Assembly (NCBI GenBank): GCA_964291675.2
Contig: OZ219866.1
Coordinates: 3,552,001 to 3,616,000, forward strand
Direction: 5' to 3'
Length of the DNA stretch: 64,000 bases
Source: Alphaproteobacteria bacterium
GTDB lineage: Bacteria > Pseudomonadota > Alphaproteobacteria > MPNO01
The translations under genes and the position numbers were made by a program. Shown here one piece after another: positions 17,363-20,951 of the stretch (the stretch's first letter is position 1; every line of letters begins with the position of its first letter). Under the pieces are notes generated by a model. The model did no database searches, had not been told where the DNA came from, and worked only from the letters and a program-made list of their open reading frames with translations.

Positions 17363-19441
17363 TTGGCCAGCGAAGCGGAAGCGCTCGCCCTTCTCAGGTC
17401 GGCGCTGGGCGACGAATCGGCGGCGTTTCGAGACGGGCAGTTCCGGGCAATCGACGCCCTGACCAACCGGCGCGAACGCCTGCTTGTCGTGCAGAGAACG
17501 GGCTGGGGCAAGAGCTTCGTCTATTTCATAGCCGCGCGCCTGTTGCGGGACAGCGGGCGCGGTCCGACGCTGATCGTCTCGCCTCTCCTGGCCCTCATGC
17601 GGAACCAGATCGAAGCCGCCCGCCGGTTGCGCCTGAGGGCGATCACGATCAATTCGACGAACCGCGAGCGATGGCCGGAGTTCAACCGGGCAGTGCGGGA
17701 CGGCCGGGCGGACGTTCTGCTTATTTCTCCCGAACGGCTGGCCAACGAAGCCTTTGTCGCCGATGTCCTCATGCCGATCGCCGGACGGCTCGGATTGCTG
17801 GTGGTCGACGAGGCGCATTGCATATCGGATTGGGGCCACGACTTCCGGCCCGACTACCGGCGTCTGGCGAACGTGCTGCGGCTCATGCCCGGCAACGTGC
17901 CGATACTGGGCACGACGGCGACGGCGAACGACCGCGTGGTGGCGGACGTGCGGGAACAGCTCGGCGATATCGGCGTTCTGCGCGGCGGGATGTACCGCAA
18001 CAGTCTCTCGCTGCAGACCATCCGCATGCGGTCCCGGATCGAACGCCTCGCCTGGCTCGCACGGAATCTGGATGCCCTGCCCGGCACGGGAATCGTCTAC
18101 ACGCTGACCAGGCGCGACGCGGATCAGGTCGCCCGGTGGCTCACCCGACACGGTATCGCCGCAGACGCCTATCATGCCGACATGAGCGACGACCTCCGCC
18201 GGCAGGTCGAAGACCGCCTTCTCCACAACCGGATCAAGGCGGTCGTGGCGACCACCGCTCTCGGCATGGGATACGACAAGCCCGACATAGGGTTTGTCGT
18301 CCATTACCAGGCGCCCGGCTCGATCGTCGGCTACTATCAGCAGGTGGGGCGCGCGGGGCGTGCGATCGAACACGCCGTCGGGATCGTATTGTCCGGCGAG
18401 GAAGACGGTCATATCCACGAGTATTTCCGTCGCTCCGCCTTCCCCGACGACAACTGGGTAGCGGCCATTTTGCGGGCGCTCGAAGACAGCGACGGGCTCC
18501 GCATCCGACAGCTCGAAGCGGCGGTCAACCTGCGCTACGGGCAAATCTCGCAGGCATTGAAGTTTCTCTCGGTCGAGAACCCGAGCCCGGTGGTCATGGT
18601 CGAGGGGAGCTGGCGGCGCACGCCGGTTCCCTACAACATGGATCGCGAGCGTGTCCGCCGCCTTACCCTCCAGCGCGAGACGGAGTGGGCTGAGGTTCAG
18701 CGATATATCGACCACCGCGGATGCCTGATGCAATTTCTTGCCCGTGCGCTGGACGACGAAGATCCCCGACCCTGCGGCAGATGCGCTTCCTGTCTGGGCC
18801 GACCGATCGTCGCCACCGGCGTCGATCGCGAGAGGCAGGCAAACGCGGCACGCTTTCTCGACCGGTCCGAAATCGACCTGGTCTGCAATCGCCAGGTCCC
18901 CGCGAATGGCTTCCCGCGATACGGGCTGAGCGGAAGCCTGCCGGCCGATCTGCGCGCCGAGACCGGGCGGATACTGTCGCGCTGGGGCGAACCGCCGTGG
19001 GGACGAATGGTCGTCGAGGACAAGCAGCAGGGTCGTTTCCGGGACGAGCTGGTGGACGCCGTCGTTCGGATGCTGCGGGAACGCTGGCGTCCCGACCCGA
19101 TGCCGGGCTGGATCGCCTGCGTCCCGTCCCGCCGACGCCCCCGACTGGTGTCGGACTTTGCCGCAAGACTGGGCAGGGCGTTGGACTTGCCCATCGAGGA
19201 AGTCGTCATCAAGGTGAAGGACAACGAAGAACAGAAGGCGCAGCAAAATCGTTACCACCAGTGCCGCAATCTCGACGGGGTCTTCGAGATCGAGGGCGTC
19301 GTTCCTCGTAGCCCGGTGCTGCTGGTCGACGACATGGTCGATTCGGGGTGGACGTTGACGGTAGTTTCCGCCCTTCTCAGACGCGCCGGCAGCGGACCGG
19401 TGTGGCCGTTGGCGCTGGCGAGCGCCAGCTTCGCCGTCTGA
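17363..19441 (+). CDS. RecQ-family SF2 helicase fused to a C-terminal ComFC-like phosphoribosyltransferase domain
   Basis: RTGWGKS; DEAHCISDWGHDFRPDY; YYQQVGRAGR; Zn site C...CGRCASC; PRPP-binding motif LLVDDMVDSGWT; TTG start uncertain. Confidence 0.9.
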   Translation: MASEAEALALLRSALGDESAAFRDGQFRAIDALTNRRERLLVVQRTGWGKSFVYFIAARLLRDSGRGPTLIVSPLLALMRNQIEAARRLRLRAITINSTNRERWPEFNRAVRDGRADVLLISPERLANEAFVADVLMPIAGRLGLLVVDEAHCISDWGHDFRPDYRRLANVLRLMPGNVPILGTTATANDRVVADVREQLGDIGVLRGGMYRNSLSLQTIRMRSRIERLAWLARNLDALPGTGIVYTLTRRDADQVARWLTRHGIAADAYHADMSDDLRRQVEDRLLHNRIKAVVATTALGMGYDKPDIGFVVHYQAPGSIVGYYQQVGRAGRAIEHAVGIVLSGEEDGHIHEYFRRSAFPDDNWVAAILRALEDSDGLRIRQLEAAVNLRYGQISQALKFLSVENPSPVVMVEGSWRRTPVPYNMDRERVRRLTLQRETEWAEVQRYIDHRGCLMQFLARALDDEDPRPCGRCASCLGRPIVATGVDRERQANAARFLDRSEIDLVCNRQVPANGFPRYGLSGSLPADLRAETGRILSRWGEPPWGRMVVEDKQQGRFRDELVDAVVRMLRERWRPDPMPGWIACVPSRRRPRLVSDFAARLGRALDLPIEEVVIKVKDNEEQKAQQNRYHQCRNLDGVFEIEGVVPRSPVLLVDDMVDSGWTLTVVSALLRRAGSGPVWPLALASASFAV

Positions 19442-19442
19442 C

Positions 19443-20951
19443 ATGATCGAAGACTCGCGGACGCAGGCAACGCTGCTGCTGACGGTTTCGCTGGGAGCCG
19501 CCGACAGGCAGGGAGCGAAGCCGCTGTCTCCGCGGGAATGGGCGCGCCTGGTGCGCTGGCTCGACGGCCGGGGAGCCGATCCATCGGCGCTGATGGGAGG
19601 CGATGTCCCGGGGCTGCTGGCGGGTTGGGAGGATCGCGCGATCACGGCGAAGCGGTTGGACCGCCTGCTCGGTCGAGGCCCGGCCCTCGGCCTGTCATTG
19701 GAGAAGTGGTTTCGGGCGGGGCTGTGGATTCTGACGCGCCCCGACCCGGCCTATCCCAGGCGGCTCGAGCGGCGTCTCGGATCGGCGGCGCCGCCGGTCC
19801 TCTTCGGTTGCGGCGCGATGCCGCTTCTGGACCGCGGCGGTCTCGCGGTCGTCGGGTCCCGCGACGCCGGCGAAGCCGATTTGGAGTTCGGCAGGCGTCT
19901 CGGCGAAGCGGCTTCGCAGCAGGGTCACTCGATCGTTTCCGGCGGCGCTCGCGGCATCGACAGAACTGCGATGAGAGGCGCGCTGGAGAGCGCAGGTACG
20001 TCGGTCGGCGTGATGGCCGACGGCCTGCTGGCAGCCTCCACGTCGCAGCTTTACCGCAGACCGTTGCTGGCCGGTGACCTCGTGTTGATCTCGTCGGTCA
20101 ACCCCGAGGCACGGTTCCGCGTCGGCACCGCCATGGCCCGCAACCGATACATCTATTGCCTCGCCGACGGCGCCGTGGTCGTCGCCAGCGCGCGCGGCAG
20201 CGGCGGTACCTGGAACGGGGCGTGCGAGAATCTGGAGGCAGGCTGGGTTCCTCTGTGGGTCAAGGCGACCGGCGAACCGGATTCCGGCAATGCCGCGTTG
20301 GCCGAAAAAGGAGGGTGCTGGCTACGAGACATTCCCGAATCCATCGCTGCGCTGTTCGACCGGGGTGGGGCCGCGGTGCGACCCGTTGCGTCCGGGCTGA
20401 CCGACGAGGCGGTGGCCTGGAGCGGCCCCGACTCCGCGGCGGCCCCGCCGGCGGAGAAAGGCGTCCGCCAGGGAACAATTCCTCAGGGGCTCGGGTTCTA
20501 CGACCTGTTCCTGGCGCGGCTGGCGGCGCTATCGGTGGGCGAGCCAGCCCTCGAAGCCAGCCTTGCCGCACGTCTCGAACTCGCCAAAGGCCAAGTGAAG
20601 ACCTGGTTGATCCGCGGCGTCGAGGAAGGACGTGTCGAGAAGTTGCCGGCACCGCTCCGATATCGCAACCCCCATCCGCAGCTTCCCCTGGATGAGCCCG
20701 GTGTCGGGCCGTCGTCGCCCGCCGGACAGGCGGCCGCGCCGCCCGCGATCCCGACGGACTTCGATTTCTACGACCTGTTCCTGCTTCGCCTGGCGGAGCT
20801 TACCTCCGCGGAGGCGCGTTCCTCGCGGGATATCGCGCACTCCCTGGGGCTCGCCCGGGGTCAGGTGCACAGGTGGCTCAAGCGCGGCGTCGCCGATGCC
20901 GTTGTTCACAGGGAGAGCAGGCCGGCTCGGTATCGCTGCGTCCGAACGTAA
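19443..20951 (+). CDS. DprA/Smf-family protein with two C-terminal HTH-like repeats
   Basis: LAVVGSR; IVSGGARGID; AMARNRYIYCLAD; repeated FYDLFL.RLA.L...LA.GQV..WL.RGV...P.RY; starts 1 nt after the RecQ stop. Confidence 0.88.
   Translation: MIEDSRTQATLLLTVSLGAADRQGAKPLSPREWARLVRWLDGRGADPSALMGGDVPGLLAGWEDRAITAKRLDRLLGRGPALGLSLEKWFRAGLWILTRPDPAYPRRLERRLGSAAPPVLFGCGAMPLLDRGGLAVVGSRDAGEADLEFGRRLGEAASQQGHSIVSGGARGIDRTAMRGALESAGTSVGVMADGLLAASTSQLYRRPLLAGDLVLISSVNPEARFRVGTAMARNRYIYCLADGAVVVASARGSGGTWNGACENLEAGWVPLWVKATGEPDSGNAALAEKGGCWLRDIPESIAALFDRGGAAVRPVASGLTDEAVAWSGPDSAAAPPAEKGVRQGTIPQGLGFYDLFLARLAALSVGEPALEASLAARLELAKGQVKTWLIRGVEEGRVEKLPAPLRYRNPHPQLPLDEPGVGPSSPAGQAAAPPAIPTDFDFYDLFLLRLAELTSAEARSSRDIAHSLGLARGQVHRWLKRGVADAVVHRESRPARYRCVRT

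Follow-up and report, generated by a model that had tools for sequence, protein, structure and literature searches.

A probable PsyrTA (RqlHI) toxin-antitoxin pair with a tandem winged-helix tail at a variable chromosomal site of an alphaproteobacterium

The gene pair and the domains of its products

Two genes separated by a single base occupy positions 17,363 to 20,951 of a 64,000-nucleotide stretch of DNA (hereafter, the window) from an Alphaproteobacteria bacterium of the lineage MPNO01 (GenBank assembly GCA_964291675.2, contig OZ219866.1, positions 3,552,001 to 3,616,000 of the forward strand). They are called here psyrT (rqlH) and psyrA (rqlI), after the toxin and antitoxin families whose profiles their products match. 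The TGA stop codon of psyrT (19439-19441) is followed by one base and then by the ATG of psyrA (19443) on the same strand. An earlier, sequence-only reading of this DNA had pointed to the 1-nt spacing, to an orientation opposite to that of both metabolic neighbours and to slightly less GC-biased codons, and these observations were borne out: the open reading frames (ORFs) 17363-19441 and 19443-20951 lie on the plus strand and both flanking genes on the minus strand, and the G+C content at third codon positions (GC3) is 0.81 in psyrT and 0.80 in psyrA, against 0.87-0.95 in the neighbouring genes. The window as a whole has ~72% GC, and regional GC falls from ~0.75 to ~0.66 at the gene pair. The features of the pair, in window coordinates, are the following.

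17363..19441, plus strand: psyrT (rqlH), TTG start; 692-aa RecQ-like helicase with a phosphoribosyltransferase (PRTase) domain, candidate toxin component (PADLOC PsyrT)
17420..18400, plus strand: superfamily 2 (SF2) RecQ-like ATPase core, residues 20-346 (Pfam DEAD and Helicase_C; motifs)
18665..18859, plus strand: tetracysteine putative zinc-binding module, residues 435-499 (cysteines; same position as residues 435-499 of Mycobacterium smegmatis RqlH)
18860..19438, plus strand: ComF-like C-terminal domain with a type I PRTase fold, residues 500-692 (Pfam and other models); presumed toxic effector
19443..20951, plus strand: psyrA (rqlI), ATG start; 502-aa DprA-like protein, candidate antitoxin component (PADLOC PsyrA)
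19443..19715, plus strand: N-terminal helical domain, residues 1-91 (AlphaFold2; no Pfam family at E ≤ 1)
19725..20357, plus strand: DprA-type Rossmann fold, residues 95-305 (Pfam; AlphaFold2 confidence, pLDDT, >90)
20481..20666, plus strand: winged-helix unit 1, residues 347-408 (hidden Markov model of the unit, E 8.7e-24; AlphaFold2)
20751..20936, plus strand: winged-helix unit 2, residues 437-498 (hidden Markov model of the unit, E 2.2e-25; Pfam HTH_29, 26-30 bits)

Residues 4-689 of PsyrT align with positions 5-685 of the 689-position PADLOC PsyrT model (PDLC03928; E 1.7e-287, 953.4 bits). Its N-terminal half is a RecQ-type helicase core, as indicated by Pfam DEAD (80 bits) and Helicase_C (61 bits, the match ending at residue 334), by the NCBIfam family recQ_fam (251.6 bits; cut-off 219.8) and by RecQ cores in the PDB that match residues 8-334 at E 4.5e-54; the score with the canonical RecQ equivalog TIGR01389 is 272.1 bits, far below its cut-off of 640.2. 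In an alignment of 46 homologues, on which residue invariance was judged, the Walker A motif TGWGKS (T46-S51) and the DEAH box (149-152) are invariant in all 46, as are motif III (T185-T187) and Q326/Q327, and R330, G332 and R333 are nearly so (≥90%). The core is followed by the linker specific to RqlH proteins (residues 347-434) and by four cysteines (C454, C471, C474 and C477), again invariant in 46 of 46, in a region where the Pfam family RecQ_Zn_bind reaches 18.8 bits, under its cut-off of 25. No HRDC domain was matched by Pfam at E ≤ 0.01.

In place of HRDC, PsyrT carries a ComF-like PRTase domain. The Pfam family Pribosyltran matches residues 599-676 at threshold level (27.3 bits; cut-off 26.3), and the comF and GntX models match the C-terminal domain with E values of 3e-5 and 1e-4, the comF score being 23.9 bits against a cut-off of 233.6. 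The phosphoribosyl pyrophosphate (PRPP) loop VLLVDDMVDSGWT spans residues 652-664, and its residues D656, D657, D660, S661, W663 and T664 are invariant in all 46 homologues. The AlphaFold2 model of residues 490-692 (pLDDT 89.5) adopts a type I PRTase fold, for which Foldseek returned weak matches (E 4e-4 to 2e-3) to APRT, Helicobacter pylori ComF (7p0h, TMq 0.52), PurF and ShosT (8zvd, TMq 0.51). No solved structure of the C-terminal half of RqlH, or of PsyrA beyond its DprA core, was found by sequence. Judged by its sequence, PsyrT thus appears to belong to the RqlH clade, with motifs I, II, III and VI of an SF2 ATPase, a linker of ~90 aa, a tetracysteine module and the ComF-like C-terminal domain; the RecQ core, zinc site and terminal PRTase domain without HRDC that had been read from the sequence alone were all recovered.

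For PsyrA, the match to its PADLOC model (PDLC03927; E 3.4e-142, 472.3 bits) covers residues 4-408 and model positions 4-395 of 398, stopping at the end of the first winged-helix unit. Residues 91-268 match the Pfam family DNA_processg_A (121 bits), the score with the canonical DprA equivalog TIGR00732 is only 83.5 bits (cut-off 191.15), and neither DprA_N nor DprA_WH was matched by Pfam at E ≤ 1; in an hhalign comparison of the winged-helix unit profile with DprA_WH, the E value was 0.003 and the probability only 10%. Residues G167, G171 and D173 of the Rossmann fold are invariant in 54 of 54 sequences. The AlphaFold2 model (mean pLDDT 85) comprises the N-terminal helical domain, the Rossmann fold and two winged-helix domains on disordered linkers, and its top Foldseek matches are DprA (3maj, E 2e-16; 3uqz) and ShosA (8zva, E 1.4e-12). 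As anticipated from the sequence alone, the C-terminal part is an internal repeat: residues 328-408 and 421-498 are 46% identical (BLASTP E 8e-17), and in the model both copies are three-helix winged-helix domains (352-408, with the order helix-helix-helix-strand-strand, and 442-499). Unit 2 is an extra copy relative to both the 398-position PADLOC model and the 400-aa RqlI of Escherichia coli. The two units may bind DNA, either as an operator or as a sensed nucleic acid.

The features that define PsyrTA in PADLOC and DefenseFinder, namely a full-length PsyrT profile, a PsyrA profile and adjacent, co-oriented genes with the toxin upstream, are present at this locus. The pair is therefore very probably a PsyrTA (RqlHI) toxin-antitoxin or abortive-infection module, in which a 3'-5' helicase with a PRTase effector would be restrained by PsyrA. 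The sequence-only reading had recognised the right kind of system, a PRTase protein paired with a DprA-like one as in toxin-antitoxin defence, and had taken it for a possibly novel, helicase-armed variant of ShosTA. Because PADLOC matches both proteins, PsyrT end to end and PsyrA up to the first repeat, the idea of a novel system was rejected; PsyrTA has already been published as a toxin-antitoxin and phage-defence system. Membership in ShosTA was likewise discarded: the ShosA and ShosT profiles are not the best matches, ShosA models reaching only 73.9 and 22.2 bits on PsyrA against 472 for the PsyrA model, and no ShosT model occurring among the best 25 of the 41 families that match PsyrT (953 bits with its own model). 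Sberro et al. are said to have described PsyrTA systems in 2013, with a PsyrT that is toxic alone and a PsyrA that neutralises it.

The chromosomal site and the distribution of the pair

The pair stands alone between metabolic genes, in a neighbourhood where Pfam recognises, besides other metabolic genes, a Phd/PIN pair, a transposase, a LuxR-type regulator and a protease.

15840-17234, minus strand: amidohydrolase gene, neighbour of psyrT (Pfam)
17235..17362, plus strand: intergenic spacer separating psyrT from the divergent amidohydrolase gene, presumed promoter/operator region
20964-21956, minus strand: alpha/beta hydrolase gene, neighbour of psyrA (Pfam)
6676-8322, minus strand: trypsin-like protease, within a stretch of lower GC3 at 4200-10800
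8195-9547, minus strand: LuxR-family regulator, within the same stretch
9624-10787, plus strand: DDE transposase, within the same stretch

The interval 17235..17362 may act as promoter or operator of the pair. It contains a perfect 12-bp palindrome, TATGTCGACATA, at 17245-17256, and a CATATGATATC-like motif occurs at a similar place upstream of psyrT in 4 of the 5 other carriers of the genus. The region is poorly conserved in an alignment of the six genus carriers, in which no conserved operator was found, and a search of it for a sigma-70-like consensus returned none; terminator-like matches at the locus were at chance level, and a repeat search gave nothing useful. The segment at 4200-10800, with its lower GC3, may likewise have been acquired. 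On the minus strand, 3 kb upstream of psyrTA, there is another toxin-antitoxin pair: the gene of a Phd/YefM-type antitoxin (13898-14176) and, after it, that of a PIN-domain toxin (~13500-13895).

Elsewhere in the assembly (4.8 Mb in 2 contigs, 93.7% complete) there are a separate canonical dprA with DprA_N, Rossmann fold and DprA_WH (220 bits), a separate canonical recQ (G000:C2:1752623-1753960, 474 bits) and a comF-like gene that stands alone and matches its model over the full length (88.8 bits). A third RecQ-family gene (L004, G000:C2:3643922-3645106) lies ~28 kb past the end of the window within a 1764-aa open frame, and giant RecQ-like ORFs of 876-2069 aa also occur in the genomes G004, G005, G007, G008, G014, G016 and G035.

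Of the 12 genomes of the genus, that of the window included, 6 encode a full-length PsyrT next to a PsyrA; the pair was found in none of 8 genomes from other genera of the family and in 1 of 21 genomes from other families of the order. The pair is thus accessory in the genus; it is not syntenic core genome, and, as the sequence-only reading had held, this is not a housekeeping recQ or dprA locus. All six carriers have it at one and the same position, flanked by the amidohydrolase and alpha/beta-hydrolase genes and opposite to both in orientation. In the non-carriers, also six, the two hydrolase genes lie side by side and point in the same direction. Three of the non-carriers (G009, G010 and G011) hold at this site a ~0.8-kb cassette with a FitA-like ribbon-helix-helix (RHH) antitoxin and a PIN toxin; the other three have no cassette there.

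L027:3854-4548 (G009), minus strand: FitA-like RHH and PIN cassette; also in L028 (G010) and L029 (G011), the copies 82-92% identical

Among the sites without a cassette, that of G002 is reduced to a gap of 3-5 bp between the two hydrolase genes, and those of G006 (143 bp) and G001 (301 bp) contain a palindromic element. This imperfect element of ~120 nt (L031 3635-3935 in G001 and L030 3522-3664 in G006), with copies 74% and 71% self-complementary and 70% alike, may be similar to repetitive extragenic palindromic (REP) sequences or to miniature inverted-repeat transposable elements (MITEs). G001 also keeps at this site ~60 bp that correspond to an end of the FitAB cassette. Searches for psyrTA remnants in the gaps of the six non-carriers (tblastn, blastn) gave nothing better than E 0.12, and no FitAB remnants were found beside psyrTA in the genome of the window at E ≤ 0.01. 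A 372-aa open frame of G001 (G001:C1:2389524-2390273, minus strand) matches positions 4-263 only of the PsyrT model (191 bits) and may be a truncated RecQ-like helicase or a psyrT remnant away from the usual site.

The history of the site was followed on a tree of three flanking proteins (1025 columns), built from flank genes only. The occupant of the site is scattered on this tree, the PsyrTA label requiring 5 changes, of which at least 4 are forced by well-supported branches. The genome of the window is sister to G009, a FitAB carrier, and the pair is absent from both of its nearest congeners, G009 and G010. Nevertheless, a tree of PsyrT and PsyrA is compatible with the flank tree, and pairwise identities track those of the flanks at lower values (69-77% for PsyrT and 57-64% for PsyrA, against 75-88% for the flanks). 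The simplest reading is that psyrTA is an old resident of this site that has been repeatedly lost or replaced; recombinational exchange of the cassette at the site may also have occurred.

Beyond the genus, >8000 PsyrT-like and at least 2607 PsyrA-like proteins were scored, with >2,600 PsyrA homologues at E ≤ 1e-10. Relatives of PsyrA are encoded on 411 species-level genome stretches from Alphaproteobacteria, Binatia, Acidobacteriota, Chloroflexota, Gammaproteobacteria, Geobacter, Latescibacterota, WOR-3 and one metagenome-assembled genome of Bathyarchaeia. Co-occurrence was a check that had been proposed from the sequence: among the best 80 of these 411 loci, psyrT lies directly upstream of psyrA on the same strand in 75, and two of the other five have no upstream DNA. 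In L070 ~1.7 kb separates the PsyrT and PsyrA matches, the usual distance being 5-32 bp, and this points to an insertion between the genes. An in-frame stop interrupts the PRTase-bearing C-terminal domain in two of 51 related psyrT genes (TAG in L042:2909-3493, TAA in L086:2868-3467), and these could be inactivated toxins or assembly errors. The helicase homologue is present on 14 plasmid records, and on an IncF plasmid of E. coli (NZ_OX030731.1; L039, 37352-40869) a pair of this kind, with a helicase 55% identical to that of the window, sits inside a type I restriction-modification operon, flanked by hsdS and hsdR.

In public sequencing runs, contigs ~91% identical and spanning nearly the whole pair were found in two other runs. 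One RNA library yielded two short contigs that differ from psyrT by 0 and 1 letters, a weak hint that the gene is transcribed, DNA carry-over being possible; in the RNA-library run X2 the psyrA part is without contig cover. A read joint in X3, from 20957 to 17212, has one side of only ~13 letters, which lies at the stretch's edge, and three further joints that skip sequence have sides of only 20-28 letters.

Copy number and divergence of the winged-helix units

The number of winged-helix units in PsyrA, counted with a profile of the unit, varies widely. The 120 nearest homologues have one copy in 32 cases, two in 58, three in 28 and four in 2, and of the 80 species-level loci mentioned above, 49 have one copy, 24 have two, 6 have three and 1, with a truncated psyrA, has none. 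The tree built from 117 units (66 columns) leaves many forks unresolved. Nevertheless, units 1 and 2 of the clade of the window form sister groups (SH-aLRT branch support 92), which points to a single duplication, placed at the base of this genus-level clade. In another alphaproteobacterial clade the units likewise fall into two sister groups of their own, and the Binatia forms (2-3 units), a Terriglobia protein and the G040 protein each group by lineage. The G040 PsyrA (L098 / L038; ~599 aa) carries three units, two of them identical and the third nearly so, a pattern indicative of a very recent tandem triplication. The sequence comparison thus indicates at least 4 independent expansions of the PsyrA winged-helix unit.

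The same units are the least conserved folded domains of the psyrTA pair within the genus, with mean pairwise identities of 59% and 54% against 76% for the Rossmann fold and 83% for each of the helicase and PRTase domains of PsyrT. Full-text literature searches, which did not extend to supplementary files, returned no published description of variation in the unit copy number of PsyrA or RqlI, so that the variable antitoxin tail is apparently undescribed and represents a modest, new addition. Its fast evolution and recurrent tandem expansion mark the part of the system on which diversifying pressure probably acts, and so offer a handle for finding the trigger. A further proposal is put forward tentatively, as possible and rather doubtful: the winged-helix module would be a copy-number-variable sensing or DNA-binding array, and this array, not the DprA core, would set what is recognised (phage DNA, a phage protein or the own operator) and how easily the toxin is released, while, separately, the fixed chromosomal site would be a spot for the exchange of toxin-antitoxin cassettes, holding PsyrTA, FitAB or nothing.

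Proposed mode of action, alternative explanations and known systems

Helicase activity, PRTase toxicity, the RqlH-RqlI interaction and phage resistance are all ascribed to this pair by analogy with its homologues in E. coli and Mycobacterium. In E. coli F11, as reported by Russell & Mulvey (2015; PMC4670107), RqlH alone causes SOS induction, filamentation and mutagenesis, a low-oxygen growth defect is among the experimental phenotypes, and the toxicity of RqlH maps to the PRTase domain; RqlI counters this toxicity and co-precipitates with RqlH, and its N-terminus is needed for antitoxin activity whereas its single helix-turn-helix (HTH) is dispensable. By this analogy, PsyrT would be a 3'-5' RecQ-like DNA helicase whose C-terminal ComF-like domain is the toxic moiety, a growth-arresting, genotoxic effector, and PsyrA, produced from the next cistron of the same operon, would keep it harmless, most likely by direct contact, as the co-precipitation in E. 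coli suggests. Phage infection or another DNA insult would lift this restraint, and the freed PRTase, probably acting on PRPP/nucleotide metabolism or on DNA ends, would stop the replication of cell and phage alike; both the trigger and the PRTase substrate are inferred. The notions, contained in the sequence-only reading, of a nucleotide-depleting PRTase and of DprA and RecQ as sensors of single-stranded DNA (ssDNA) are hypotheses. Modelling of the complex had also been suggested there: PsyrT 345-692 with PsyrA 1-335 scored 0.55 against 0.18 for the best of 3 controls, the runs agreeing in at least 89% of contacts with a pLDDT of at least 82 for the partners. The mark used for this score is reached by 58 of 80 solved complexes and by 2 of 110 mismatched pairs, but scores up to 0.60 are found in only 7 of those 80 complexes and in both passing mismatches, and a pass in this range is likelier to be false than true unless the pairing was probable beforehand; the prediction therefore lends weak support to the modelled complex.

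Besides this weakness, several results weigh against a PsyrTA module active in phage defence. At E ≤ 0.001, PADLOC matched just one of the 10 neighbouring ORFs, the trypsin-like protease, and that one marginally (E 5e-4), so that a defence-island context, which had been put forward for checking with PADLOC and which the Pfam content of the neighbourhood also fails to reveal, was discarded for this locus. No phage record matches the helicase at E ≤ 1e-60. The fixed site in six species and the compatibility of the PsyrTA and flank trees also fit a long-resident, possibly domesticated module. The functional experiments were all performed on copies from outside the Alphaproteobacteria. The Millman et al. 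2022 preprint places PsyrTA among the systems giving phage resistance, and states that a psyrA deletion was not obtained or not transformable, possibly through toxicity; in another preprint (bioRxiv 10.1101/2024.12.20.629700), E. coli PsyrTA gave no protection against the phages tested, either in its native host or upon heterologous expression. Finally, ShosA neutralises ShosT without direct binding, according to PMC12961424, and direct neutralisation can therefore not be assumed from a DprA/PRTase pairing alone.

Some of these observations would also be explained if the pair were only a selfish addiction module, maintained by post-segregational killing and taking no part in the phage defence of this host. 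A classical FitA/PIN pair occupies this intergenic site in three congeners, a Phd/PIN pair lies only 3 kb away, defence genes are missing from the neighbourhood, and the E. coli system was not protective against the phage set of that one study. We nevertheless consider this explanation unlikely, given that PsyrTA of another donor is reported as phage-protective in Millman 2022 and that homologues occupy defence contexts elsewhere, such as the restriction-modification operon of the IncF plasmid; moreover, the occupant of the site was repeatedly lost or replaced, with at least 4 changes on the flank tree, and addiction has thus been too weak to fix psyrTA. A role as a DNA-repair or recombination accessory, with a RecQ-type repair helicase and a DprA-like RecA loader serving the maintenance of the host genome, would agree with the fixed chromosomal position in six species and the co-divergence with the flanks, with the true 3'-5' helicase activity of M. 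smegmatis RqlH, proposed in PMC3378886 as a RecQ substitute in mycobacteria lacking RecQ, and with the binding of RecA and ssDNA by the relative ShosA (PMC12961424). Such a role is very improbable, since a canonical recQ (474 bits) is already present in the genome together with a complete dprA of the canonical kind, 6 of the 12 congeners, the two nearest among them, lack the pair, the GC3 of the pair is atypical, and PsyrA diverges much faster than the flanks (57-64% against 75-88% identity).

Hardly credible is the third possibility, a natural-transformation module that would process incoming ssDNA as an analogue of ComFA, ComFC and DprA. The likeness exists at the level of domains, the PsyrT C-terminal domain matching comF/GntX models and having H. 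pylori ComF among its best folds, and the analogy has already been published (PMC5512222). Yet the comF and dprA equivalog scores (23.9 against 233.6 bits and 83.5 against 191) are far from their cut-offs, a stand-alone comF-like gene (88.8 bits) and a canonical dprA exist elsewhere in the genome, and the patchy distribution in the genus is unlike that of a core uptake machine. Identification of the pair as PsyrTA is thus retained. As found, it matters little by itself, adding an alphaproteobacterial PsyrTA that standard defence-finding software would call; the site, alternating between two unrelated toxin-antitoxin cassettes and an empty state, provides a natural example of cassette turnover outside classical defence islands.

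Among known systems, M. smegmatis RqlH, a biochemically characterised 3'-5' helicase of 691 aa (Ordonez, Unciuleac & Shuman 2012; PMC3378886), has the same four-part architecture as the 692-aa PsyrT, with the ATPase at 1-346, the clade-specific linker, the zinc module at 435-499 and a ComF-like PRTase domain in place of HRDC; it differs in having no RqlI partner, as stated in PMC4670107, and in being read as a repair helicase. ShosTA (PMC11961720 and PMC12961424) likewise joins a PRTase-containing toxin to a DprA-like antitoxin, and the fold match of PsyrA to ShosA is strong (8zva, E 1.4e-12), whereas that of the PsyrT C-terminal domain to ShosT is weak (8zvd, E 2e-3) and a helicase is absent from ShosT. 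With the genome's own canonical DprA and RecQ the pair has the Rossmann fold and the SF2 RecQ core in common, but that DprA has the DprA_N and DprA_WH domains that PsyrA lacks, and PsyrT is without HRDC. In RqlH/RqlI of extraintestinal pathogenic E. coli F11 the toxin gene is also upstream in the operon; according to PMC4670107, rqlH is upstream in all described rqlHI loci and 88% of the Gram-negative carriers have both genes. RqlI of F11 has 400 aa and one HTH, in contrast to the two winged-helix units of the present PsyrA. PsyrTA as modelled in PADLOC agrees with the pair in gene order, tight spacing and domain content. What sets the locus apart from PsyrTA as described is its host, an uncultured alphaproteobacterium that resembles Rhodospirillales judging from what its nearest relatives are called, the position of the pair alone between metabolic genes and a PsyrA of 502 aa instead of 398 model positions, the extra ~100 aa corresponding to the second winged-helix unit and its linker.

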